Assembly: GCF_003704095.1 (NCBI RefSeq)
Contig: NW_020847220.1
Coordinates: 1 to 64,000, forward strand
Direction: 5' to 3'
Length of the DNA stretch: 64,000 nucleotides
Source of the DNA: Pocillopora damicornis
Taxonomy: Eukaryota
Shown: positions 3,551-47,700 of the stretch, one piece after another
Layout: every line of letters begins with the position of its first letter
How positions within the stretch are numbered: the stretch's first letter is position 1
The notes under the pieces: model-generated
The model's input: the letters and a program-made list of their open reading frames with translations, nothing else
Told to the model about the DNA's origin: nothing
Databases searched by the model: none
Position numbers and translations under genes: made by a program

Positions 3551-4942
3551 GCCAGCGTTTGTACGACGCTAACGCGTTATTGAGGCACAGCGTGTATTAA
3601 AAGAGTTGTGCAAATTTTTGTCATTTTCTTCAGGTTCATCTTTTTACTACGTATCATCCGAGACCCACAGGTGGTTGGTCAAAACGGCACAATTTTTCCC
3701 GCTGGTCCAGGTCCCATCCTGTCAGATTGACTTCTAGGTTGGCCAGAGAAACTTCCTTAAGAGAAGCCTTTACGAGTAGGATTCCTCTAATATTTTATTA
3801 TTTTCTCTCGAAGGGTCCACGTAAAGTCGTCAGCATTAACAAATTTCGTTAATGATCAGTCTTGCAGCTATAAAAACAAAATTTCAGCTCCATGACAAAG
3901 GGAGTCTGTCAAGGAATATTTTCCACCCTCATTGAAAGGTAAAAATTTTTTTAAGGAGGAAGCTTCTGGTATAGAAGATTTCGGATAATCTGATTTTCTT
4001 TGACTGAAAAATTCAGCCTCAGTCAAAAATCACTGTAGAGATTTAAAAGCACATTCTCGGGTCCGAGTTGTTTATAATTACGTAGGCTTCAACATATTCA
4101 GACTGTGAGTAAAGAACTTTGCCAATGCGAGCCCTTGTGTGCACGCATGCATGCATCTACCAGTTTACTCAAAATTTCTCGTGGAGGAACTTAAGGCTGG
4201 TTCAGTCACTCGTACGACGCAAATGTAAACGACGTTCCCACGTCGAACGCAAAAGCAAGGAAGGTAAAAAACACAGATGCAGTGGAAGTATTATTGCAAG
4301 ATGACGGGCGAGACTGTGACCTTTGTCACAGTCTGCATTTCATACTTTTCCCTTACAGACCGCTGAAGAGACGAAAAAATTGTCTCCAGAAGTCGAAGAG
4401 TAGCGCTAAGAGCGTGTGCGTTAGGCCAATCTTTCGATGAAGAGAACGTCAAGTAAATTTTCTTAGTTCGTGAGTCACAACTTAGCAACTGAGAGTTTTA
4501 CTTTGGCAAAGCAAGCACGCTTCAGCTCTTATAGGCATCATATTCAACTATGTAAGTCAACCTAACACATATGTCTTGCTGTATTATTATTAATGTGATT
4601 TGTTCGTAAGCAACGCACTGCTAACATTTATTTTCGCATACTGCCTCTGATTCGTCATAATTCGACGCAGCCATGGTGACGTGTGATTTCAACTCTTGGC
4701 TAATTTACTTACTCTACTGTAAATTGAGGTGCGAAGCAGCCGGTGTGCCACTTCAGTAATTCATTAAGGTGTCGTTTTCTTTTTAAATTTAGAGACATAA
4801 AACTTCAAAAAGAGAGAAAACAATCGTAAAAAAAAAAAACAATCGGACAACAGTCCAAAAATTCGACTTGTGATCTCAACACGATTATTTTTGAAGGCAG
4901 TGCCGTGGCGCACGAAAACCCATAACTTGAAAGGCAAAAGAA

Positions 4943-6043
4943 ATGGAAAGCAACATCACAAAAGAACATTCTCATCATCATCCGGCGGAGGCTTCCACCA
5001 CAACTCAGGACGTTATTTTTGCAGTGTTGTACTCAATTATTGCCGTTCTGGGTGTAATCGGTAACGCTATGGTAATTACCATAGTGCGAAAAACGCCATC
5101 AATGCACACAACGACCAACTACCTCCTCCTGAACTTAGCCGTGGCCGATTTATTGACATTGCTCCTCTGTCCTGGTTCGTACGATTTCGCTCTGGCGCAC
5201 GTTGACTTAGAAGGATTCATTGGGGATTTCATCTGCAAACTGTTTGCGGGAAATGCAATTGTTCCGATCACTATCAACGTCGCCGTTCTTACGGTTTGTA
5301 CGATCGCAGTTGAAAGGTATCTAGCGCTTCTCAAACCTTTCCGCTCTAATCTAAGGATAGACAAAGATAAAGTGAAATATGTGATAACAGTGCTGTGGTT
5401 GTTTGCCTTAATCTCGTGCATACCAGATATTCAAGCCAATACGTACGACATCTCGTCCACCAAATATCCTTGCACGCGTCCCTGGAGTCTAGATAGTTAT
5501 TTCCTTCACAAACCTTTTATCATATTTACTTGTGTTGGGTTTGGAATCATAAGCTCCTTGACACTCTTCTTCTGTTATTTTTCAATCCTCCGTGGAATAT
5601 ATTTCACAAAAACAGTTTTCTCGGAATCAACGGTAACGGAGGCTGAACGACAAGCAAAGAAACAACTCGCTCGCCTTCTTATCTGGTTGACATTTGTATT
5701 CGCTACCTGCTCTCTACCATTTGCAGTTTACTTCATGTTTCTTAGCTTCGTTAATGTCAAAACTATAAAGGAAAAGTACGACATATTGTATTTATTTCAC
5801 AGAATTTCCAGGTTTTTACTTTTCTCGAATTCGTTTTTAAATCCTTTATTGTATGCTCTACAAAGCTCAAATTTTCGAGATGGATTCAAATTAATTTTTA
5901 GTTTAAAACTCCTCCGCTGTAAGCTTTTAGCAAATAGGAGAAAGTCGGCAAAAAGCTCTAGCTCGACAGGCGTTGTCTTGAGTAAAGAAACAATTTTATT
6001 TAGGAATAAACCGGTGATTAAGACAGATGGTACAAAATGTTAA
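4943..6043 (+). CDS. Class A GPCR, paralog of the 630-1664 gene (366 aa)
   Basis: 7TM; GNAMV, NLAVADL, ERY, YPCTRPW, NPLLY. TM1-TM3 closely resemble those of the left GPCR. Possible 5'UTR intron 4552-4792. Confidence 0.95.
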   Translation: MESNITKEHSHHHPAEASTTTQDVIFAVLYSIIAVLGVIGNAMVITIVRKTPSMHTTTNYLLLNLAVADLLTLLLCPGSYDFALAHVDLEGFIGDFICKLFAGNAIVPITINVAVLTVCTIAVERYLALLKPFRSNLRIDKDKVKYVITVLWLFALISCIPDIQANTYDISSTKYPCTRPWSLDSYFLHKPFIIFTCVGFGIISSLTLFFCYFSILRGIYFTKTVFSESTVTEAERQAKKQLARLLIWLTFVFATCSLPFAVYFMFLSFVNVKTIKEKYDILYLFHRISRFLLFSNSFLNPLLYALQSSNFRDGFKLIFSLKLLRCKLLANRRKSAKSSSSTGVVLSKETILFRNKPVIKTDGTKC

Positions 6044-30885: not shown

Positions 30886-31929
30886 ATAAATAAATAGAAC
30901 CATCACGCGTTACTGTGTCAATTTGCTTGACTTAGTCGTAATTAACTCTGTTGCCTTTTTTGAGGTTACCTCAATGTTCCTAAATTTAGCGGGTACTTGA
31001 TATTCCTAAACTGTCATAAATCCCGGTGAACGTGGAATTCTTGAATGATAGAAATGTAGTATGGAAATGGACTTATTGTCGACAGAAGAAAAAATTAGAG
31101 GCGCCGATCTGCATGGCCTGTAAAGCCGAATTATACCGTAAAGCCTTGTAAGAAACAACGAACTGTTTGTTTGCGTTTACACGAACCGTTTAACTGTGGA
31201 GTTAAGAATTCTGAATATGATTTTCTTCACCAATGGTTAGGAGGTAGGGCTGACTTTCCCTTCAGAAGGATGGGTTGTCGGGCAGAGTGTGTAATTTCCG
31301 CATCGCTTACTTGTGTGGTTCGGTTTATTTTCCACAGACCCTTAATTTTTACGTAAATGGTTTGATAAAAGACTGGTTGTTTTTTCTTCTCGGATGGGTG
31401 TACTGTAGAAGGTTTTCCTGAAGAATGGGGGTCATTTTTGTGCAATCTTGCGCATGGGGAGGCATCCCATTTGGTCCCATTTGACACATAGACGTAACAT
31501 TTATACGGCAATTATTTTTCCGATCGCAAAATCTCGCAAAGGCGCGCTCTAGAATAAACCCAGACGAAGCGGGGGTCACGCGCGATGGGGTAATGAAAAT
31601 GCGTGCCTTTCTCGCGCTTGAATCACTTTCCTCGAAGGCGCCTCGATCCTCGAAAACACGAAAAACGATGGCTATTCTGCAGAAATGGTGGTCATTGATT
31701 TCTTGTCTGAGGCTGGTGTCTCAGTTTTTTCTTTCCCTTATTTTGTAGCTTTTCTTTAATAACTCGCGAGCGCGCGACGCATTCTTTAGCGAATTCAAGG
31801 TATATGCTGCATGGTAGAACGACGTATAGTCACTTTGTAAAATTTCTTCAGGTAGGCCATATTGTTGTGTCAATTTGTGGAACTGTTATGTAAGACGTAT
31901 CACTGTCAACTGGTACAATAGGTACATCC

Positions 31930-32421
31930 ATCTACACTGTCTACAGTGGATACAACTATCTAAACTGTCTACAGAAGGTACAACTATCTACACTGTCTAC
32001 AGTAGGTACAACTATCTACACTGTCTACAGTAGGTACAACTATCTTAACTGTCTACTGTAGCTACAACTTTCTACACTGTCTTCAGTAGGTACAGCTATC
32101 TACACTGTCTACAGTAGGTACAGCTATCTACACTGTCTACAGTAGGTACAGTTTTCTACACTATGTACAGTAGATACAACTATCTACACTGTCTACAGAA
32201 GGTACAACTATCTACACTGTCTTCAGTAGGTACAGCTATCTACACTGTCTACAGTAGGTAGAGCTATCTACACTGTGTACAATAGGTACAATTATCTACA
32301 CTGTCTACAGCAGGTACAACTATCTACACTGTCAACAGTAGGTACAACTATCTACACTGTCTACAATAAGTACAGTAGAATACAATAGCTACAACTATAT
32401 ACGCTGCCTACAGTAGGTACA
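31930..32421 (+). repeat. 28-bp minisatellite CAACTATCTACACTGTCTACAGTAGGTA
   Basis: Direct tandem array with period 28; internal palindrome ACTGT-CT-ACAGT. Confidence 0.95.
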
Positions 32422-33421
32422 GGTGTAGGTATAGGCCCCCAAGCCAGATTGAGAATAACTCCTATAGCGTGATTCGAACCCGCGACCTCGATGACCTCTC
32501 TTGCACTCGTTGCGCGCCTACGATTGCCGCTCGACCATCTCGAAACTACATGTTTAATAAGTATGAATTGTCGGTGTAGTGAGTTTTGAAATACCAGGTT
32601 GGGGCGGAGGGTGAGGAACTTTGTGTTACTGAGAGTGCAATCAAGCGTTTCCGGTCGAGAATAAAGGAAGTAAGTCAAACAAAGAACTGACAAAAGCGAT
32701 CTACACGAGGAATATTAGCATATGTTGTAATGGCGGACGGCTTCGTTCGCTGAAGCTCTTGAATATGATTCCTCTTGCTGCGCTTAAAAATCACGTAATC
32801 ATGTAGGCGAATAAGCGCACTTAACGTATTTTAATCCATGGACCAGGTTAAAAGGTACGATGGTCTTTAGCTCTTTATCGAGAACACTGTCCTATATTTT
32901 CTATTGCATACTTTTTGTGTACAAATTACCCCTTTTAGGTTGGGGAATCTTATCTGGCCTTTTTTTTCTCCTATGAATCCCTCAATAAAGAAGATAGTAC
33001 AACCCTTATATGACAACAAAATTTGCATTATCATTAAAAAGCTCCTTCAGTTTATGCAAGGATGAAGAGGCGTTCGAGATTTTAACTGAATAAATCTGCA
33101 ATTTACTGAACTGATGGCTTAAGAGTACCATTATTTATAAAAAAACATCTCGATCCGTATCAGAGAGTGTTGCCGTACAGAAGCAGAGAGAGGAAGTGGT
33201 CGGTAGACTTCACATTTTTCTCGCAGATTATTTATGACCAAAAATTTCCTTCCAAATTTCCAAATTTCCTTTGTAAAAGTAACCGAGATACTTATGTATT
33301 TAACCATCTTCCATTTTAAGAAAAACATAAAAAGTTTTTTTTTTGATCGTAAAAGATACTCCCGGAAAAAATTGAGAGAAAATAGCAAACTAGAAAATAG
33401 CGGCATTGTTGTGTGATCTTT

Positions 33422-34320
33422 GCTAGACAGTGTAGATAGTTGTACCTATTGTAGACAGTGTAGATAGTTGTACCTATTGTAGACAATGGAGATAGTAATA
33501 CCTACTGTACACGGTGTAAACAGTTGTACCTACTGTAGACAGTGTAGAGAGTTGTACCTACTGTACACAGTTTAGAAAGCTGTACCTACTGTAGACAGTG
33601 TAGAGAGTTGTACCTATTGTACGCGGTGTAGGTAGTTGTACTTACTGTAGTTGTACTTATTGTTGACGGTGTAGATAGCTGTACCTACTGTAGACAATGT
33701 AGATAGTTGTACCAACTGTAGACAGTGTAGATAGTTGTACCTACTGTTGACGGTGTAGATAGTAGTACCTGTTGTGACAGTGTAGGTAATTGTACCTACT
33801 GTAGACAGTATAGATAGTTATACCCGCTGTAGACAGTTTAGATAGTTGTGCCTACTGTAGACAGTGTACGTAGTTGTACCTACTGTAGACAGTGTAGATA
33901 GTTGTACCTATTTTAGAAAGTGTAGATAGTTGTATCTACTGTAGACAGTGTGGATAGTTGTACCTACTGTAGACAGTGTAGATAGCTGTACCCGCTGTAG
34001 ACAGTGTGTACCTACTTTACACAGTACAGATAGTTATACCTACTGTACACAGGGTAGATAGTTGTACTTACAATAGACAGGGTAGAGGGTTGTACCTACT
34101 GCATACAATGCAGATAAAAGTACCTACTGTAGTTAGTCTAGACAGCTGTACTTACTGCAGGTAGTGTAGATAGTAGTACCTACTATAGACACTGTAGACA
34201 GTGTGGATAGGTGTACTTACTGTAGACAGTGTAGACAGTTGTACCTACAGTAGACAGTGTAGATAGTTGTATCTACTGTAGACAGTGTAGATAGTTTTAC
34301 CTACTGCAAATGGTGTAGAT
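33422..34320 (-). repeat. Same 28-bp minisatellite, inverted, followed by an internal copy of the terminal sequence (to ~34410)
   Basis: TAGACAGTGTAGATAGTTGTACCTACTG repeats; 34320-34410 matches 44535-44615. Confidence 0.95.
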
Positions 34321-34403
34321 GGATGTACCTACTGTTCTAGTTAACACAGTGATATGTCTTGCATAACAGTTCCACAAAGTGACACAACAGTATAGCCTAC
34401 TGA

Positions 34404-34698
34404 AGAAATGTAAAATGGTTTCCGTGTTTACACAGCCTGGTGTAAACACGCGGGAGGTTGAGAGAACACGAGATAAGCGTAGGAAACCACGACGCGAAGC
34501 GGAGTGGTTTCCAGCTTATCGAGTGTTCTCCCAACCTCCCAAGTGTTTACATCAAGCTATGTAAACACGGAAACCATTTTACATTTCTTTTATAAAATAA
34601 CTAATGAAAGAGGAACGAAAGCCGTGTTTACATACGCTCATGTAAAATGGTTTTATGGCCAATGAGAGCGCGCGTACTATTTGAATCATTTTATAAAT
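34404..34698. mobile_element. Hairpin (palindromic) non-autonomous element
   Basis: ~90-bp imperfect arms 34404-34588 (agaaatgtaaaatggtttccgtgtttaca...tgtaaacacggaaaccattttacatttct) around a GCGAAGC centre, plus a unique 3' tail. Confidence 0.75.
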
Positions 34699-34699
34699 T

Positions 34700-35280
34700 G
34701 TGTTCTTAAATGACCTTGATATTAAGCTAGGTTCCACTCCCGCATGCCACTCTTAAGTTATTAGTTGTGACCTGCTAGAATGACTGTAAATGTTTTGCAC
34801 ACATAAAAGCTAAACTGTGCAAGGCCAACAATTGTCTAAACGTGCTGAGAGCATTTAGAAAAGAACGCTACAGCCAAACAGAAATTGATTATCTCTTCTA
34901 TAGACAGATGCTATAAGTTGCGCTTTACATCTACGCAGATAAATATTAGATCATTACTGAAAAAACAAGATAAAGCGATTCTTAAAATAGTTAAGCAGCG
35001 TGATAACCACCGTCTGAAGGTTTGCTTACCGCAGGAAAAGAACAACCTCAGACGTAAAAGCTGCCAATGGCCTAAGATAAACCCTGAACGTTATAAGAAC
35101 ACATTTGTAAATAGATTAATTTTTAAACACAACCTTTTATGATATTTCATGCCAGATATATTGTATCTAGTTTGATGTTTTTATTCTTTTATTCTATCGT
35201 AATTTTTGGCTGAACCTTGAATCTTTTTATCCTGTAACATTAGATATATATTTTTATCTAATGTTCAATAAAGACACTTA
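34700..35280 (+). pseudogene. 5'-truncated non-LTR retrotransposon (CR1/L2-group-like) ORF2 C-terminal relic
   Basis: Frameshifted translation HIKAKLCKANNCLNVLRAFRKERYSQTEIDYLF / DRCYK...NLRRK...PKINPERYKNTFVNRLIFK resembles the post-RT C-terminus of CR1-group LINEs; T-rich 3'UTR and AATAAA follow. Confidence 0.65.
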
Positions 35281-35740
35281 GAAACCTAGACCTATAGAAA
35301 ATATAGGTCAGTGTTCTCAATCAAGAGCTGAAGACCATCGTACCTTTTAACCTGGTCCATGGATTAAAATACATTAAGCGCGCTTATTCGCCTTTATGAC
35401 TACGTGATTTTTATGCGCAGTAAAAGATGTGCAATACATTACTGAGGAGTCATATTCAAGAGCTTCAGCAAACGAAGCCGTCCGCCATTACAACATATGC
35501 TAATATTCCTCGTGTAGATCGCTTTTATCAGTTCTTTGTTCGACTTGTTTCCTTTATTCTTGATCGGAAACGCTTGATTGCACTCTCAGTAAGACAAAGT
35601 TCCTCACCCTCCCCCCCAACCTGGTATTTCAAAACTCACTACACTGACAATTCATACATAATAAGTATGTAGTTTCGAGATGGTCAAGCGGCAATCGTAG
35701 GCGCGCAACGAGTGCAAGAGAGGTCATCGAGGTCGCGGGT

Positions 35741-35840
35741 NNNNNNNNNNNNNNNNNNNNNNNNNNNNNNNNNNNNNNNNNNNNNNNNNNNNNNNNNNNN
35801 NNNNNNNNNNNNNNNNNNNNNNNNNNNNNNNNNNNNNNNN
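35741..35840. other. Assembly gap (100 N)
   Basis: Run of N. Confidence 1.
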
Positions 35841-36132
35841 ACAACAGGTACAACTATCTAAAATGTCTACTGTAGGTACAGCTGTCTACACTGCCTACAG
35901 TAGGTACAACTATCTACACTGTCTGCAGTAGGTACAACTATCTACACAGTCCACGGTGGGTACAACTATCTACACAGTCTACAGTAGGTACAACTATCTA
36001 CACTGTCAACAGTAGATACATCTATCTACACAGTCTACAATAGGTACAGCTATCTACACTGTGTACAACAGGTACAACTATCTACACTTTCTACAGTAGG
36101 AACAGCTATCTACACTGTCTACAATAGGTACA
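35841..36132 (+). repeat. 28-bp minisatellite array
   Basis: Same unit as 31930-32421. Confidence 0.95.
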
Positions 36133-38452
36133 AGGAAAAAGAGTAAAATAAGATATAAATCATGATAATAAGGAGAAAAAACAGCAAAAACAAAATGCAA
36201 ATTCCGCGGGGAGGAGTTCCTCGGCCCCCAAGCCAGTTTGAGAGTAACTCCTTGTCCGCCAGCTCCAAATCATACTCGGGGAGAAGTTATTCGGCCCCCA
36301 AGCCATATTGAGAATAACTCCTATAGCGTGATTCGAACCCGCGACCTCGATGACCTCTCATGCATAAATTGTCGGTGTATTGAGTTTTAAAATACCAGGT
36401 TGGGGGGGAGGGTGAGGAGCTTTGTGTTACTGACAGTGCAATCGAGCGTTTCCGGTCAAGAATAAAGGAAAGGAATCTAACAAAGAACTGACAAAAGTGA
36501 TCTACACAAGGAATATTAGCATGTTGTAATGGCGGACGGCTTAGTTTGCTGAAGCTCGTTAATGTGATTCCTCAGTATTACATCGCACATCTTTTACTGC
36601 GCATAAAAATCACGTAAGTATATGGGCGAATAAGCGCGCTTAATGTTTTTTTATCCATGGATCAGGTTAAAAAGTACGATGGTCTTTAGCTCTAGATTGA
36701 GAACACTAACCTATATTTTCTGTTGTATAATTTTGGTGTACAAATTATCCTTTTTAGATTGGAGAATCTTATCTGGCCTTTCAGTTTTGGCTCCTATGAA
36801 TCCCTCAATAAAGAAGATTGCAGTCCTTTTATAATAACAAAATTTGCATTATCACTAAAAAGCTCTTTCAGTTTATGCAAGGATGAAAAGGCGTTCGAGA
36901 CTTAAACTGAATAAATCTGCAACGTACTAAACTGATGACGTAAGGGTACCATGGTCTATAAAAACACGGGTCGATTCGTATCAGAAAGTTATGCCGCACA
37001 GAAACAATGAGAGGAAGCTGTCGGTAGACTTCACATTTTTCTCGCAGATTATTTCTGACCAATAATACAAATTTTCTTCGTAAAAGTAACCGATGTACTT
37101 ATGCATTTAACCATCTTCCATTTAAAAGCGGGATTGACGCAAGCGTAGTCAGCATATTTATCCCTGACACTTCTCATTGTAGTCCGAAATTTATTTACGA
37201 AATCATTGTCTGAGAGAAAGGAGGTGTAAAGTTTCCAATAACCTGGACCACAAGTAAGAAGAGGGTACTTTTGCCCAAACCTCCTCCCCTCAGTCTAACG
37301 ACCAACAGGAAGGCCTGAAGGGTGTCAGGAGCCATAGACGGCGATAGGGAACTTAACTACTTGATTTAGTTTACAAACACACTCAGTAATCAAGGTGAGC
37401 TACTAGAACCAGTTTTAACTGATGCTAACTAAAAACTTTACTTGACCTGAACAAACACTATCAGCATATCAAACAAAAGCAACGTTTCAAGGGTCAAGAA
37501 CGACATTTTTCCTTTAATTCCATGTTTTGAATCTTGCCTCTAGTCAAAAGATGGTATTGGAGTTATTTATCACTGAAACTTCTCGTTGTCGTCCGAAATT
37601 TTTTTTACGAAATCATCATCTGAGAAAAAGGAGGTGTAAAGTTTCAAATAACTTGGACCACAAGAGGTAAAAAAAATACATAAAACGGTTAAGGAATGAA
37701 AACTATTTCTATTTCAAGGAAAAAGAGTCTTTGCTGGCGACTTCTGAACAACAGAATATATCACAGGATTCAGAATATAACTAACAATTAACAGAATGAC
37801 GCGAAAAAAAAAACTGCTCTGAAAGAAAAATAAGGGAAAAGGAAAAAAGAAGATAAAAAGGATGATAATAAGGGGAAAAAGAAGAAAAAGCAGCAAGAAC
37901 AAAATGCAAATTCCGCGGGGAGGAGTTCTTCGGCCCCCAAGCCAGTTTGAGAGTTACTCCTTGTCCGCCAGCTACAAATCAAATGCATTTCAACGGTCGA
38001 TCAGCAGCATGTACGCAGCAACACACGTTTATAAAGAGCGGAAACTGTGAATTTCTTTGAGGGCCGGTTTACCATCGGAAACTACATCCCAACGTCAGAG
38101 TTCGGCACGTAGACATACTTAGAAAACGTTTACCTCCTTCTAACTTGTATTGCCTATCGAAGGATGATGAGCTTGAAATGGATAATACGATTAAAAGGAT
38201 GAAAAGAGGTAAAAAAAAGAGGTAAAACGGTTAAAGAAAAACAAATCCATTTCTATTTCAAGGAAAAGGAGTCTTTGCCTGCGACTTCTGAGCAACAGAA
38301 AACACTACAGGATTCAGAATATAACTAACAATAAAAAAAAGTGGCCTAAAAAAAAAAAAAACCGCTCGAAAAAAAAATAAGGAAAAAAGAAGATAATAAT
38401 GTTGATAATAAGGAGAAAAAAAAGAAAAAACAGCAAAAACAAAATGCAAATT

Positions 38453-38657
38453 CCGCGGGGAGGAGTTACTCGGCCCCCAAGCCAGTTTGAGAGTAACTCC
38501 TTGTCCGCCAGCTCCAAATCATACTCGGGGAGAAGTTATTCGGCCCCCAAGCCAGATTGAGAATAACTCCTATAGTGTGATTCGAACCCGCGACCTCGAT
38601 GACCTCTCATGCACTCGTTGCGCGCCTACGATTGCCGCTCGACCATCTCGAAACTAC
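38453..38657 (-). ncRNA. Putative Pol III unit: tRNA-like head plus two pseudoknot-like hairpin repeats (full copy)
   Basis: Minus strand: A-box TGGTCGAGCGG, B-box GGTTCGAATC, two GGAGT..TC-[GGC-TTGGGG-GCC]-GA..AACTYC-TCCCC units, then T-runs. Confidence 0.5.
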
Positions 38658-39579
38658 ATATTATATTAGCATAAATTGTCGGTGTAGTGAGTTTTCAAAT
38701 ACCAGGCTGGGGGGGAGGGTGAGGAGCTTTGTGTTACTGACAGTGCAATCAAGCGTTTCCGGTCAAGAATAAAGGAAATGAATCAAACAAAGAACTGACA
38801 AAAGCGATCTACACGAGGAATATTAGCATATGTTGTAATGGCGGACGGCTTCGTTTGCTGAAGCTCGTTAATGTGATTCCTCAGTATTGCATCGTACATC
38901 GTTTTCTCCGCATAAAAATCACGTGGTCATATAGGCGAATAACCACGCTTATTGTATTGTAATCCACGGACCAGGTAAAAAGGCTCGATGGTCTTTAGCT
39001 CTTGATTGAGAACACTAAGTTATATTTTCTATTACATAATTTTGGTGTACAAATTATCTCTTTTAGATTGGGGAGTCTATTTTGTCTTTTTGGCTCCTAT
39101 GAATCCCTCAATAAAGAAGAAAGTAGTCCTCTTTCGAGAACGAAATTTGCATTATCACCAAAAAGCTCTTTCAGTTCATGCTATCCTTGTATGAACTGAA
39201 AGAGCTTTTTGGTGATAATGCAAATTATCGACATCTTCACGTCAGAGTTCGGCACGTAGACATACTGAGAAAACGTTTACCTCCTTCTAACTTGCATTGC
39301 CTATCGAAGGATGACGAGCTTGAAATGGATAATACATAAGAAACGTCAAAGGAAGAAAAGAGGTAAAAAAATACATAAAACGGTTAAAGAAAGGAAAAAA
39401 CCATTTCTATTTTAAGGAAAAAAGTCTTTGCCGGCGACGTCTGAGCAACAGAAAACACTACAGGATTCAGAATATAACTAACAATTAACAAAGTGGCCCG
39501 AAAAAGAAGGGAAAAGAAGACAAAAATGATGATAATAAGGAGAAAAAGTAAAAATAACAGGAAGAATAAAATGCAAATT

Positions 39580-39784
39580 CCGCGGGGAGGAGTTACTCGG
39601 CCCCCAAGCCAGCTTGAGAGTAACTCCTTGTCCGCTAGCTCCAAATCATACTCGGGGAGAAGTTATTCGGCCCCCAAGCCAGATTGAGAATAACTCCTAT
39701 AGCGTGATTCGAACCCGCGACCTCGATGACCTCTCATGCACTCATTGCGCGCCTACGATTGCCGCTCGACCATCTCGAAACTAC
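39580..39784 (-). ncRNA. Putative Pol III unit (full copy)
   Basis: Near-identical to 38453-38657. Confidence 0.5.
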
Positions 39785-41245
39785 ATATTATAGTACCATA
39801 AATTGTCGGTGTATTGAGTTTTAAAAAACCAGGCTGGGGGGGAGGGTGAGGAACTCTGTCTTACTGAGAGTGTAATCGAGCGTTTCCGGTCAAGAATAAA
39901 GGAAATGAATCATACAATGAACTGACAAAAGCGATCTACATGAAAAATATTAGCATACGTTGTAATGGCGGACGGCTTCGTTTGCTGAGGCTCGTTTATG
40001 TGATTCCTTAGTATTGCATTGCACATCTTTTATTGCGCATACAAACCACGTAATGATTGAGGCGAATAAGCGCACTTATTGTATTTTGATCCATGGCCCA
40101 GTTTAAAAGGCTCGATGGTATTTAGCTCTTGATTGAGAACACTAACCTACATTTTCTACTGCATAAGTTGGTCTACAAATTATCCCTTTTAGATTGGAGA
40201 ATCTCATCTGGCCTTTTTGGCTCCTATGAATCCCTCAATAAAGAAGATTGCAGTCTTTTTAAAATAAAAAAATTTGCATTATCATTAAAAAGCTCTTTCA
40301 GTCCATGCAAGGATAAAAAGGCGTTCGAGACTTCAACGGAATAAATCTGTAACTTACTGAACTGATGGCTTAAGAGTACGATGGCTTAAGAAGAGGGTAC
40401 CTTTGCACAAACCTCCTCCTCTCAGTCTAACGACCAGCAGGAGGGCCTTGAAGGGTGCCAGAAGCCATAGTCGGCGACAGGGAACTTAACGTCGTGATTT
40501 AGTTGTCAAACACGTACACTCAGCGATAAATGTGAGCTACTAAAACCATTTGTATCGGGTTAAGCCATAACAAATCGTAAAGCTGATGGTAGTTAAAACT
40601 ATACTTGATCTGAAGAAGCAACATCGGCATAACAGGGTTTCGTTGCATACGATTTCGGACGATTACCGACACTTGACATTATGCATGACTACGGAAAGTT
40701 AAGCTGATGTCGGAGATATGCTCCAGCGCGGATCCTCACGCAGTTACGAGCCTATTTTAGTATTCTTTACATGGTGAATTTCACCGCAGTTTACGATCAG
40801 ATATCCAAGGTCAGAGTTCGGCGGATAGACGTTCTAAGAAAAGGTTTTGCTTCAACTTGCATTGCATATCGATTTGAAAACTGAAATGGATGATACAGAA
40901 ATAACGTAGAAGAAAATAAATAGGGGAAAATAGACAACACAGTTGCAGAAACAAAACGATTTCCAGTTTGAGGAGAAAAAGTTTTTGCCGGCGATGTCTG
41001 CTGTGTGGAAGGCTTATGTAAGACGTATCATTGTGTAACAACAGCGACAACTTTCTACAATGGGTACCACTATCTACACTGTCTACAGTAGGTACAACTA
41101 TATACACTGTTTACAGTAGGTAGCACTGTCTACAGTGTGTACAACTATCTACACTGTCTACAGTTAAGGTACAACTATCTACACTGTCTACTGTGGGTTC
41201 TAGGTTCATTTGGTCATGGGTTCAAATCCCGTACTGGCCTGAATT

Positions 41246-41345
41246 NNNNNNNNNNNNNNNNNNNNNNNNNNNNNNNNNNNNNNNNNNNNNNNNNNNNNNN
41301 NNNNNNNNNNNNNNNNNNNNNNNNNNNNNNNNNNNNNNNNNNNNN
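41246..41345. other. Assembly gap (100 N)
   Basis: Run of N. Confidence 1.
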
Positions 41346-42804
41346 CTTCCTTTGACGTTTCTTATGTATTATCCATTTCAAGCTCGTCATCCTTCGATAA
41401 GCAATGAAAGTTAGAAGGAGGTAAAATGTTTTCTCAGTATGTCTACGTGCCGAACTCTGACGTTAAGATGTCGATGTCCGATCGTAAACTGCAGTGAAGT
41501 TCTCTTTGTCGAGAATAAAATAAAGAAACAGGCTGGTAAGTCTTTGAGGATCCGTGCTGGAGCACATCTTCGACATCAGCCTACCTTTCCGTAATCATGT
41601 GAAATGTCATGTATCGGTAATTGTCCGAAATCGTATGTAACGAACTCATTCAAAATTGGACAGAGCCCCATGATATTAAAACAAGAGAGAAAATAGCTCC
41701 AATACCATCTCTTGACTAGAAGCAAGGTTCGAAACATGGAATATAAGGAAATATGTTGTTCTTGAGGTTTGAAATTTTGCTTTTGTATGCTATGCCGCTA
41801 TTGTTCAGTTTGTTCAGGTAAAGTAAAGTTTTTAGTTAGCATCAACTTCACGACTTGTCATGGCCTAACCAGATAGATACAACTGGTTCTAGTAGCTCAC
41901 CTTGATTACTGAGTGTGTTTGTAAGCTAAATCAAGTGGTCAAGTTCCCTATCGCCGTCTATGGCTCCAGACAGCCTTCAGGCCTTCCTGTTGGTCACTAG
42001 AGGGGAAGAGGTTTTGGCAAAGGTACCCTCTTCTAACTTGTGGTCTAAGTTATTGGAATGTTTACACCTCCTTTCTCACAGATTATGATTTGGTAATGAT
42101 AAATTTCGGACGACAATCAGAAGTGTCAGTGATAAATATTCTGATTACTCTTGCGTCAATCCCGCTTTAAAATGGAAGATGGTGATATACATAAGTATCT
42201 CGGTTACTTTTACAAAGGAAATTTGAATTTTTGGTCACAAATAATCTACGAGAAAAATGTGGAGTCTACCGACCACTTCCTCTCTTTGCTTCTGCACGGC
42301 ATAACTCTCTAATACGAAAAGAGCCGTTTTTTTAATCATGATACTCTTAAGCCATCGGTTCATTAAGTTGCAGATTTATTCTGTTGAAGTCTTGAACGCC
42401 ATTTTATCCTTGCTTTTATCCTTTTATCCTGTAGAAAATATAGGTCAGTGTTATAAATCAAGAGCTGAAGACCATCGTACTTTTTAACCTGGTCCATGGA
42501 TTAAAATACATTAAGCGCGCTTATTCGCCTTTATGATTACGTGATTTTATGCGCAGTAAAAGATGTGCAATACAATTCTGAGGAGTCATATTCAAGAGCT
42601 TCAGCAAACGAAGCCGTCCGCCATTACAACATATGCTAATATTCCTCGTGTAGATCGCTTTTGTCAGTTCTTTGTTTGACTTACTTCCTTTATTCTTGAC
42701 CGGAAACGCTTGATTGCACTCTCAGTAAGACAAAGTTCCTCACCCTCCCCCCCAGCCTGGTATTTCACAACTCACTACACCGACAATTCATACATAATAA
42801 ATAT

Positions 42805-43008
42805 GTAGTTTCGAGATGGTCGAGCGGCAATCGTAGGCGCGCAACGAGTGCAAGAGAAGTCATCGAGGTCGCGGGTTCGAGTCACGCTATAGGAGTTATT
42901 CTCAATCTGGCTTGGGGGCCGAATAACTTCTCCCCGAGTATGATTTGGAGCTTGCGGACAAGGAGTAACTCTCAAACTGGCTTGGGGGCCGAGGAACTCC
43001 TCCCCGCG
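42805..43008 (+). ncRNA. Putative Pol III unit (full copy, + strand)
   Basis: A-box at 42817, B-box GGTTCGAGTC at 42874, hairpin units 42892-42936 and 42962-43006, T-rich terminator-like tract from ~43017. Confidence 0.5.
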
Positions 43009-43876
43009 AAACTGCGTTTTTGTTTTTGCTGTTTTTCTTCTACTTTTTCTCCTTATCATCATCATTTTTATCTTCTTTTTTCCTTTTCCCTTCTTCTGTT
43101 TCAGAGCAGTTTTCTTTCTCGGGCCACGTTGTTAATTGTTAGTTGTATTTGAAATCTTGTGGAGTTTTCTGTTACTCAGAAGTCGCCGGCAAAGATTCTT
43201 TTTCCTTGAAATAGAAGTGGTTTTGTTTTTCTTTAACCGTTTTATGTATTATTTTTACCTCTTTTCTTCCTTTGACGTTTCTTATGTATTATCCATTCCA
43301 AGCTAGGCGATACAAGTTAGAAGGAGGTAAATGTTTTCTCAGTATGTCTACCTGCTGAACTCTGACGTTGGGATGTCGTTGTCTGATCGTAAACTGGCCT
43401 CCAAACGCATCGTCGAATTCCCGTGGAGGTCTCGTGGCAAAGAGTTCCTCTCAATTTGGCGGGAAAGGTCATTCCGAATTTACAATGCAGTAAAGGAAAT
43501 CCAAAAATTTATGAGAAAAAGAAGAAAGAAAATTGGGCAAAGCAAACTAAGGAAAAAAGAAAACCTTAGCTTCGATTTCTTCGGCCCGGGCTCTCTCACG
43601 ACTATTCGGCTGTTTGATGAATACTTTACGTATTAAACCCTATGCAAAATGTGCCATAAATTCTCTTTTGTTATGTAATGGAAGACTCGATGCAAACAAA
43701 ATGTGCAGATCGAGAGGCCTTTCCTATTGTGACAAATACCAAAACCGAAGAAGATAAATGCTCAGAAACAAAAAAAGAAAAAGGAAAGATAACAATGATG
43801 ATAAGAAGAGGTAAAAATAGAAAAGTCAGCAAAAACGCATTTTTCTGTGAACGTATTTTATTAAAGCTTTACCGAA

Positions 43877-44535
43877 TGTAGACAGTGTAGATAGCTGTAC
43901 CTACTGTAGACAGTGTAGAAAGCTGTACCTACTGTAGATAGTATAGATATTTGTACCTATTGTAGACAGTGTAGATAGTTTTACCTATTGTAGACAGTGC
44001 AGATAGCTGTAGCTACTGTAGACAGTGTAGACAGCTGCATCCACTGTAGACAGTGTGGATAGTTATACCTATTGTACACAGTGTAGAAAGCTGTACCTAC
44101 TGTGGACAGTGTAGAAAGCTGTACCTACTGTAGACAGTGTAGATATTTGTACCTATTGTTGACAGTGTAGATAGTTGTACCTACTATTGACAGTGAAGAT
44201 AGTTGTTCCTATTGTGGACAGTGTAGATAGTTGTATCTACTGTAGACAGTGTAGATAGTTGTACCTACTGTAGACAGTGTAGATAGCTGTACCCGCTGAA
44301 GACAATGAAGATAGTTGTACCCATTGTAGACAGTGTAGATAGCTGTACCTACTTTAGACAGTGTAGACACCTGTACCTACTGTAGGCAGTGTAGATAGTT
44401 GTAGCTATTGTACACAGTGAAGAGGGTTGTACTTATAGCAGATGGTGTAGATAGTTGTACCTACTGTAGACAGTGTAGGTAGTTGTGTCTACTGTAGACA
44501 GTGTAGATAGTTTTATCTACTGTAGACAGTGTAGA
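43877..44535 (-). repeat. 28-bp minisatellite of the right inverted terminus
   Basis: Tandem TAGACAGTGTAGATAGYTGTACCTACTG. Confidence 0.95.
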
Positions 44536-44756
44536 TGGACGTACCTACTGTTCTAGTTAACACAGTGATATGTCTTACATAACAGTTCCACAAAGTGACC
44601 CAACAATATAGCCTACATGAATAAATTTTACTAAGTGACCATATGTTGTTCAACCATGCAGTATGTATCGAATTCAATGATAATTCATTGATGTTGCATG
44701 AAGCAAATTCCTTTTCATACCTTCGCAGATGCTCGCGGGCGCGACATCGAGCCAAG

Positions 44757-47700
44757 ATGGCTGCCGAGAAGTGTGCGAAGATTGTGCAGAGACTCTCAAA
44801 TACGTCAGGCGAAGAGTTAATGATAACTTTACAAGATCTTAGTGCCCTTCTTAACAGCTCATCTTTTGGTACTCGTGAGATAGCGCCTCATATCCCAGCT
44901 CGTTCGTTGTTTGGCTGTTTCAGTACAACCAACGAAGAGCAAATTTCACTGTGCAAAGGGATATTGAACAAATTACTATCTGTAGAGAAGGCAGACGCAA
45001 TTATAACTCAGTACCACGATTTCGTCATCGAAGGTTTGAATCATCCACAGTTTGAGGTCCGCGAGTTTTGCTTGGGTGAGCTGGAAAGATGCTCTGCAAC
45101 TGTTAACGGCCTTCTCGCTATTTTGGACAATGTGGATATCCTGGTTTACACCACTCGTGCGCTGAGCAACGAGAGCCTTGCTTGCGTCAAGTTGGCCTCA
45201 AATACGCTTATCAACACTGCAAAACATGAATCCGGCCTGGAGATTTTGTTTGAACATCAGATTCAGAGTGAAATCGAGGAGCTTCTAACGAAAAAAGATG
45301 TTATCCGGTTCAGAGTGTATGAGCTTTTTGTGGCTATCCAACGTCTCTCCGAAAAAGCGTTTAAATTATGCAGAAAATCAGGTGTTTTGGAGAAATTGGC
45401 AAAAGAGCTTGATGGAGATGATATTTTGCTCAGATTGAACAGCATTGAGCTTTTGACGCAACTTGCAGATTCAGGAACAAATGGGCTCATGTTTGTTGAA
45501 GAAAGTGGCATAGCAAATAAGCTGAACAATTTATTGATTACTGCTGAAGTAGATCCACTGATCTCTTTGATGTTACCAAGTAAGATTTTATTTTTAGTAT
45601 AGACAGTTCAAACACAGAAAGTCAATTAAAATGATTTAAATGTTCAGATTTTATAGAAGGGTAAGCTTCTAAAGAAACTGTAGGGTAGTGTCAGTAGACA
45701 GTAGTACTGGATAATCTGGTTTTATCAAATGAGTTCATAATGTAAACACTTGAGCCGTCAGCTTTAGAATCTGTTCACAGTGGTCAATATTCAATAAACA
45801 CAATCTGAACTAAGTTGATAAAACCAAAATATCTTCTTCCTAGTTTTTGAAATAATGATGCAGAAATTCCAACCCTTCTGATTTGATTGGTAGTCTCCCA
45901 ATTTGATGTGTTGCCCCTCTCCTGATTTATCATAAAATTCTTATAACAAAGAAAAAATTGCTTCTCTTATAAGTATCTTTTGCAATCTGAGAGTAAAATG
46001 TTATGTAACATACTTTCCTATACAATTTTTTTGTTTGCAGATGACTTAGGCATAAATTAAATAAAATAATACTCCCTATTTCCCCTCAAAAGGGGTTGGA
46101 ATATCTGTGAATAATAATGATACCAACAACAATAATGATACTTTCTGTTCTTATATGGTGCTGCCTCCAATATAATTGCCCAAATAGTACTTAACAAATA
46201 TTCAATAACATTAAAAATGATGGTAAGAATGCTAGGAAAGGGCAATGTTGAATCTTCAAAGTGATCAGCTAAAAAACTGGAAGTCACATTTAGAAAATTA
46301 AATGTCTAAACAAGCATTTTCACAGCTCAGTATAGGCTGCCCCTTTTGCTGTCTGAACTTACAGGCAAATTGTCATCAGGTAAAGGTCCTAAGATCTCAT
46401 TGGTGATTCTCCTTATTGTCAGCCATACAATTCTTATGATATAATTTCTGAGAATTTGCTGTTGGATCAACTATCAATCCAGTATCAATCCCCTAATTTA
46501 CATTTTTCTTTCTTCATATCACTTGTCTGCTTGATATTGCCATATATTGTAGGAAGAAATTCTGTCTTGGTCACTCGTGTAATACATTTTCTTGATCTTG
46601 AAATCTTACAGGTATTATCAGATTCTTTGGTTATCTGGCTCAGTCCAGACCAGCAGAAGTGATTCAGCAGTATCCAGCCTTTTTGGAAAATGTCATCTCC
46701 TTCCTAACAGCTGCAGATCCATCTCTTAAACTGATTGCCATAGAAACAGTTGGTGCTGTGTCACATTCAGAAGCAGGTCTGCAAGTAGTATTTGATGACA
46801 AGAGCCGCATTCATGAGATCATGAAAGTCTTGTGCACAAACATCACTTCTTCCCAAGCTGATGTGAAGGCTCGTTCCTTGGAAACTCTGGCCTTGATTTT
46901 TCACTCCACTCAAGTTCCTTCTGAGGATTTGTCAGCTTTGACAAGATTGCTCTTTATTGCTATGACATCTAATCCACTTCAGGAACTGATGGAAATTTCT
47001 AAACAACCTTTTCAAGATGTTCACTATGCTGTGTTGAAAGTGTTTAGAAGTCTTGCCAAATACCGATGGGCACAAGAAAACATGACCACTTGCCCAGGTA
47101 AAAACAAAGAAGACTAAGCTTATTAAATAAATAGTATCTTGTAATCATAAAGCTGGAAACCTATTCTGGACACAAACTTTGGTTTAGAACAGAAATAGAT
47201 GATGAGATGAATGTGCTTATCCTGCTACATATGCTTGCACAAGGTGAAACTCTTTGCATGTCCCTACTTGTGAAGCGTGGATGTGCATCATCTGAAATGT
47301 GAATCCTAATGAAAATATCACAAAGCATATGATGGACTGCAGACAGTTTGCAGTGTCTTGTAAAAAAAAACCTCTTTGAAGACATTCTTCCACCAAACCA
47401 CAGAAATCACAGCTCCACTTAGGCTTATTGTTCCAAGGACAGTATTCAGAGTACCCTCTTGGAGATGGTAGCTTAAACAAGTTAAGATAGTTTAGGTTAA
47501 CAATTTCCATCTCACCTTGAGAGAGCTTGCACCCAAACCTGCCTATTCATGGTACATTGTGGATAAATAACGAGGATTTGTCCCCCCCAAAGTGGCCTAA
47601 AACTTTAGGGCTTATAATATATAGATTTTTTTCTTGCAGGTTTCCTTGAATACCTTTTAGACAGGAAGACAGAAACAGACAAGACTGGCAAGGAACTGAA

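Follow-up and report, generated by a model that had tools for sequence, protein, structure and literature searches.

A compact module of 45-46 nt, built of a long stem (P1), a 3-bp hairpin nested within it and a loop able to pair with the tail that follows the stem, is very probably a real RNA structure kept by selection. Two such modules lie one behind the other in a unit of the coral Pocillopora damicornis that, judging by its sequence, is likely to be an RNA polymerase III (Pol III) gene for an RNA of ~215 nt. The full module also recurs in eight settings with unrelated flanks, named A/B/C, D, E, F, G, H, I and J, where A/B/C comprises the gene of the coral unit and two homologous families and is counted as one setting. 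The motif fitted no known class in the membership tests run and appears to be new. The window, that is, the whole stretch of 64,000 bp analysed (contig NW_020847220.1), is animal DNA with a GC content of ~38% and contains spliced genes and a proteasome assembly gene at 44757 (Pfam PF10508). It has almost no repeats outside a cluster at 31791-44675.

The initial annotation had described at 42805 a small RNA unit with an A-box, a B-box, two modules and a T-run, in three full copies and in partial ones at ~32433, 35669, 36200 and 37910. Every part was present in the unit at 42805-43021 and all the copies were recovered. The features of the unit, its copies and the surrounding cluster are as follows.

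42716-42724, plus strand: upstream element common to the related genes, possibly a PSE-like external promoter element (putative role)
42805-42813, plus strand: 5′ strand of the predicted terminal stem and presumed RNA start; family C carries another terminal stem that likewise pairs
42817-42827, plus strand: A-box
42874-42883, plus strand: B-box, predicted to base-pair, as RNA, with the linker at 42941-42949
42891-42935, plus strand: module 1 (72.4 bits), reading from its 5′ end A, P1 5′ strand (42892-42901), a 7-nt bulge, the 3-bp hairpin with UUGGGG loop (42909-42920), P1 3′ strand (42921-42930), U and CCCC
42961-43005, plus strand: module 2 (63.5 bits), laid out as module 1, with two stem mismatches in this copy
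42909 and 42979, plus strand: module cores
43007-43015, plus strand: 3′ strand of the predicted terminal stem
43017-43021, plus strand: T5 run, presumed Pol III terminator
38441-38657, minus strand: full copy, intact
39568-39784, minus strand: full copy, intact
36190-36365, minus strand: copy with B-box and both modules, the A-box region being deleted (58 nt)
37900-37981, minus strand: partial copy, decayed module 2 only
32434-32549, minus strand: partial copy, truncated within module 1 and fused to minisatellite
35669-35740, plus strand: 5′ part of a copy, ended by an assembly gap
31791-44675, no strand assigned: repeat cluster of 12.9 kb holding all unit copies
31914-32374, 33424-34335, 35846-36133, 41050-41198 and 43870-44551: five arrays of a 28-bp minisatellite

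All the parts were found in each of three copies, at 42805 (plus), 38657-38441 (minus) and 39784-39568 (minus). A 27-nt core pattern gave nine exact matches in the window as against 0.02 in shuffles, and one match with three mismatches at 61074. The 10-bp stem ascribed to each module was complete (10/10) in the 38453 and 39580 copies and reduced to 8/10 in module 2 of the copy at 42805, and the compensatory change from U-A to C-G between the modules was present as claimed. An eleventh pair, A-U, can be added to the drawing of P1. Folding also predicted two pairings absent from the initial annotation, namely the terminal stem formed by 42805-42813 and 43007-43015 and a helix between the B-box sequence and the linker that separates the modules, which would place module 1 at the tip of a long arm. 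The folding of the whole RNA was weakly better than that of shuffles, with z of −1.0 to −2.0 for the window copies and of −2.7 to +0.5 over seven copies. The unit had been called tRNA-headed, which was borne out for the promoter boxes and not for a tRNA fold, as ARAGORN found no tRNA genes in the window and Rfam likewise no cloverleaf. Because folding pairs the B-box with the linker and the 5′ end with the segment before the T-run, the head probably serves as a promoter without folding as a tRNA. The calls of ARAGORN under relaxed settings (59 in 13.5 kb) were discarded as noise.

The evidence for the module as an RNA structure comes from a scan of metagenome contigs (42 of 64 parts covered) in which 17 core bases were fixed and both strands of P1 were left free. 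Core matches were found at 121 loci at least, 37 of them with the full module. P1 formed at least 9 of its 10 pairs at 31 of 38 loci under 47% GC, many of these 31 being near-duplicates, and at 1 of 83 loci above it; since the scan did not select for pairing, this is an unbiased test. Furthermore, in an alignment of 30 of 31 distinct modules, which were picked for at least 8 of 10 pairs and include one misaligned row, both sides had changed in 8 of the 11 P1 pairs, the P1 positions were 96% paired as against 40-62% in slid controls, and the covariation score was matched by none of 500 shuffles. The claim of covarying modules was upheld, the covariation of P1 across unrelated loci far exceeding shared ancestry within the window. 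One P1 position carried G-U in 13 of the 30 rows, which indicates that the RNA strand is that of the A- and B-boxes; the opposite strand was rejected because these pairs would turn into A-C, and a likeness of that strand to the twister loop was rejected because its parts stand in the wrong order.

The A and G at the base of P1 were invariant in 30 of 30 rows even though they lie outside the search pattern, and the G that follows them was kept opposite U, C or G. The pattern fixed the 3-bp hairpin, the loop, the CCCC and the 11-nt spacing, so the constancy of these parts is not independent evidence. The hairpin showed zero compensatory changes. A copy outside the search pattern (L132:4881-4932) has the loop UUAGGG with the tail CCCU, so that the pseudoknot is changed on both sides, and in three other unforced copies, found in flanks, this pairing is broken. 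A covariance model trained on the 30 modules gave at least 33 bits at 37 of the 121 loci and at most 25.6 bits at the remaining 84. Settings H, I and J, which were outside the training set, scored 33-40.5 bits, as compared with a best background of 25.6. Viral contigs contained 55 core, 77 loose-pattern and 17 B-box-plus-core matches, with no module among them (best 20.7 bits) and no match to the UUAGGG variant. Prokaryote genomes gave 11 core matches and no module (best 21.8 bits), and phage records gave only two 24-nt B-box matches.

Families B and C have the layout of the coral unit, with A-box, B-box, two modules and T-run, and in family B the T-run begins 1 nt after the module. Between families A, B and C the modules are 80-96% identical, 17 of the 45 module positions having been chosen by the search, and the B-box is 93-100% identical, as compared with 52-73% for the heads (shuffled 48%) and 40-55% for the flanks (shuffled 42-45%). 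The distance of the 9-nt upstream element from the A-box that follows it is exactly 70 nt in five copies of B and C and 92 nt in the three window copies; in L154, where there is a deletion, the distance is 23 nt. A B-box upstream of the module was found in A/B/C, G and H, with a chance of 2-4% for each, and in none of D, E, F, I and J (5 of the 8 settings). Of 15 representatives, 7 have the module enclosed by an outer stem.

Family H (L072 780-1030 on the minus strand, L126 and L166) lies in GC-rich DNA, and its host is presumably an alga. Its gene of ~240 nt has a USE-like box, a TATA box, a B-box, a terminal stem and one module, and the USE-like box stands 24 nt before the TATA box, which is the Pol III spacing reported for Arabidopsis in sections of PMC8287931. 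Two variants are 93% identical in the RNA versus 52-59% in the flanks; the family looks like a selected single gene and offers the cleanest example of a module gene for experiments. Family D (L059, L094, L143 and relatives) carries a single module at the tip of a hairpin of ~116 nt, which is 91-93% identical versus 74-78% for the flanks, has no B-box and also appears in two RNA-type runs. In setting I (L111 1-1227) a BTB-domain gene ends in a stop codon ~50 nt before the module begins. L111 was noted as a compact element with the module in its 3′ region and two close-packed genes, one with the BTB domain and the other of a family found on 8-12 kb contigs, in which 18 homologues carry one Pfam accession; the element had no atlas match and no relative among the viral contigs, and our impression is of a Polinton-like element or small DNA virus. 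In family G (L172 1-60 and 166-215) a module with a B-box is found ~130 nt before (TTGGGG)10 at the end of the contig. The module loops read TTGGGG or TTAGGG, both of them telomere repeat units. Coral loops do not follow the animal telomere repeat, a template region was searched for and not found, and the likeness may be a coincidence.

The copies in the window all sit in a cluster built from units of 1.2-2 kb, both tandem and inverted, with two assembly gaps inside. The outer inverted arms of the cluster consist of the minisatellite and ~120 unique bases, and long inverted arms with tandem subrepeats are a foldback feature; the unit copies between inverted 28-bp minisatellite arms look like a foldback element, with no flush target-site duplication at the outer ends of the cluster. 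The unit had been taken for transposon-borne and SINE-like, and neither description was substantiated. The reading frames of the cluster of at least 72 aa had zero Pfam matches and the outer inverted arms no duplication, while a target-site duplication of at least 6 nt was found at none of the three full copies, which share flanks of 0.3-1 kb. Related loci elsewhere also have long flanks in common. The 131 reading frames of the cluster and 16 loci contained no transposase and one reverse transcriptase fragment, on the strand opposite to the modules, so that a LINE link through a same-strand reverse transcriptase near the modules was not found there. A spread of the copies through DNA-level duplication of kilobase units within a foldback-like repeat fits best, and several of the window copies are decaying. 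A Penelope-like (Naiad) carrier was also considered, for which excerpts of PMC8557442 describe a similar tandem and inverted layout, and was rejected, the copies being variable at either end and lacking a protein nearby.

Some further observations were made in passing. A near-perfect palindrome of 89 nt (39141-39229), to which several miRNA models matched below threshold, looks like the junction of an inverted duplication. A different B-box-like sequence at 41200-41245, between minisatellite and assembly gap, may be the head of some other repeat derived from a small RNA. At 34410-34690 a short element that contains inverted repeats starts exactly at the end of a truncated foldback arm, and two intronless, divergent reading frames at 630-1769 and 4931-6043 resemble rhodopsin-type receptors and are ordinary. 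The one reverse transcriptase fragment, at L070 2615-3136, ~1.2 kb from the modules and on the opposite strand, is probably an unrelated neighbour.

The earlier view of the unit as a structured Pol III RNA was upheld for the structure by covariation, whereas the Pol III gene is probable from the promoter boxes. Transcription is expected to run from ~42805 to the T-run. Between 14 and 26% of the words of a 971-nt stretch were contained in 15 RNA or probable RNA runs, part of the stretch being in runs labelled coral metagenome. Contigs were placed on the unit for 4 of the 23 listed runs; they numbered 80-92 in three RNA-type runs, of which one is marked as likely DNA, and 9 in the fourth. These contigs, which carry neither RNA ends nor strand, extend ~300 nt past the T-run, and in RNA-type runs the unit is joined to the same 28-bp minisatellite at other points. 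A rise in contig depth over the modules was rejected as a sign of an RNA 5′ end, as contigs have neither ends nor levels and three runs place the rise differently.

At the Rfam gathering score no family matched the window or 20 related loci, and searches by E-value returned only hairpin noise off the module or weak matches far below threshold. No published description of the module was found in the open full-text literature, and sections of PMC5786205, PMC2655684, PMC8557442 and PMC11773456 hold none. The core 12-mer occurred in one paper only of the full-text search, by chance in a plant miRNA precursor. The sequence may already be listed, without its structure, as a SINE consensus in Repbase, Dfam or SINEBase. 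The module is short and self-contained, and compact folds that covary this much across distant eukaryotes rarely remain uncatalogued. Depending on its function, it could represent a cellular xrRNA family, a ribozyme of a new class or, outside bilaterians, a class of Pol III RNA that had been missing. Excerpts of a 2021 review describe xrRNAs as characterised only in viruses and list cellular ones as an open question (PMC8374639).

We tentatively suggest, as a possible function, that the module is a ring-forming pseudoknot which would stall 5′-3′ exonucleases on a Pol III RNA, like the xrRNAs of plant viruses. The loop GGGG would pair with the CCCC directly after P1 and thereby close a loop that counts 14 nt besides the closing pair, a size taken from the secondary structure alone. 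The 5′ strand of P1 would have to thread this loop because it pairs with 8-11 of its nucleotides, and the resulting ring around the 5′ strand would be expected to halt XRN1/2 a few nucleotides 5′ of the conserved A-G-G, so that fragments of ~130 and 60 nt would remain as stable products. In sections of the same review (PMC8374639), rings of 15-16 nt and tandem copies are reported, and one plant-virus class combines a stem-loop with a pseudoknot and lacks the three-way junction. In the module the apical loop may pair with the 3′ tail; its P1 covaries, and its pseudoknot shows one compensatory change and was mostly fixed by the search pattern. The position of the L111 module, ~50 nt after a stop codon, speaks for such a barrier. 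Against it, the coral gene has almost nothing 3′ of module 2 to protect, the module matches none of the Rfam models of xrRNA families, and on geometric grounds a P1 with all its 11 pairs could hardly form together with the pseudoknot. The outer stem in 7 of 15 representatives also fits a displayed domain as well.

A displayed domain is what one alternative proposes, in that the module would be a knob to which a protein binds, displayed by a stable Pol III RNA that resembles vault RNA or adenovirus VA RNA in build, with a terminal stem, long arms and one or two knobs; its partner would be a conserved host protein or a reverse transcriptase mobilising the RNA. The terminal stem, which differs and yet pairs in A, C and H, and the placement of modules at arm tips are explained by a knob as well as by an exonuclease barrier. 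The internal boxes and upstream element match the vault promoter layout in sections of PMC7058938, and both modules are kept in three diverged coral-type families with heads near random identity. We consider a knob slightly less likely than an exonuclease barrier. It names no partner, vault genes are conserved chiefly in the boxes according to the same sections whereas here the modules are conserved, and mobilisation would have to be squared with the lack of retroposed copies with target-site duplication and with the opposite-strand fragment as the one reverse transcriptase in the reading frames searched.

A small self-cleaving ribozyme of a new class, cutting beside the conserved A before P1, is improbable in our judgement. 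Equally improbable is the wider reading in which such a natural ribozyme class of ~46 nt would be common to corals, a eukaryote resembling an alga, the chromosome end of a protist-like organism and an element resembling a virus, and would define an old, unrecognised class of eukaryotic Pol III RNAs. The size and nested pseudoknot would suit cleavage, as would the A and G at the P1 base, invariant outside the search pattern, and the patchy distribution in eukaryote repeats; Schistosoma has Pol III repeats with hammerheads (sections of PMC6765202), and twister, which can do without its outer stem, cuts at an NA site within an internal loop (sections of PMC11662667). But few unpaired nucleotides besides the U are conserved, two cuts make little sense in a terminated 215-nt RNA, where they would destroy the conserved terminal-stem fold and release a piece of 70-78 nt without promoter, and no HDV, twister, pistol or hammerhead core was found. 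For the last three, neither Rfam on either strand nor core-motif patterns (0 of 13 settings, either strand) gave a match. Slightly less probable still is a unit that now lacks any RNA function, the coral copies being dead or passive remnants of a SINE or another repeat, or the pairing acting in single-stranded DNA. Several copies, including that at 42805, are indeed decayed or broken, all are within the rearranged cluster, and in two RNA-type runs the likeness starts at 42811-42814 after foreign sequence, as retrocopies might; two copies are intact, however, the modules and B-box are much better kept than head and flanks across families, the G-U pairs favour one strand, and family H resembles a selected single gene.

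HDV-like ribozymes, among which the tRNA-adjacent theta ribozymes belong, have a P1.1 that joins loop pyrimidines to the G after P1, and a P4 and J4/2 with the catalytic C. The HDV-type fold that had been suggested for the module was not confirmed. The order P1, P3, loop, P3′, P1′ and pseudoknot, with P1 and P3 nested and P3′ leading directly into P1′, the 3-bp P3 and the G-U-rich pair near the P1 base are alike, but P1 is longer, and P2 (helix names as in sections of PMC4035085) was absent in 15 of 15 representatives, none of which beat shuffles (lowest p 0.09). The polarity of P1.1 is inverted, as the loop has no C and supplies G whereas the tail, UCCCC, supplies C; P4 and J4/2 are missing, and family B, with 1 nt between module and T-run, has no room for them. 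Unlike vault RNAs, in which the B-box lies near the 3′ end, the coral RNA has ~215 nt, a B-box ~130 nt before its end, modules as its most conserved part and no Rfam match. With vault RNA genes it shares the internal A/B boxes and an upstream element (of presumed promoter role), the small multigene cluster and a predicted terminal stem before the T-run (sections of PMC7058938).

Like the coral unit, tRNA-derived SINEs join a head with A- and B-box to a body unrelated to it (sections of PMC5786205); the coral unit differs from them by its long shared flanks and conserved upstream element, with no target-site duplication or LINE-like tail found. A Pol III promoter combined with a compact structured motif in tandem repeats recalls the SINE-like hammerhead repeats of Schistosoma (sections of PMC6765202), but the coral unit has no hammerhead core, its terminator is right after the modules, and its repeat unit of 1.2-2 kb is mostly outside the predicted transcript. 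In twister, too, pairing links the apical loop to the 3′ strand of an internal loop, an A is conserved on the 5′ side and the outer stem is optional (sections of PMC11662667), whereas the module has one pseudoknot instead of two and its linker on the other side of the hairpin. From plant-virus xrRNAs the module is set apart by its place in cellular DNA, its P1 of 10-11 bp, its 3-bp hairpin with a 6-nt loop, its frequent position under an outer stem, the lack of an Rfam match and a nuclease resistance that is a prediction. It resembles the xrRNAs of Luteoviridae and Tombusviridae as a bulged stem-loop without three-way junction in which the 3′ tail is predicted to pair with the apical loop, and xrRNAs more widely in its predicted closed loop (14 nt and the closing pair, compared with 15-16) and in its tandem copies, as in flaviviruses (sections of PMC8374639).
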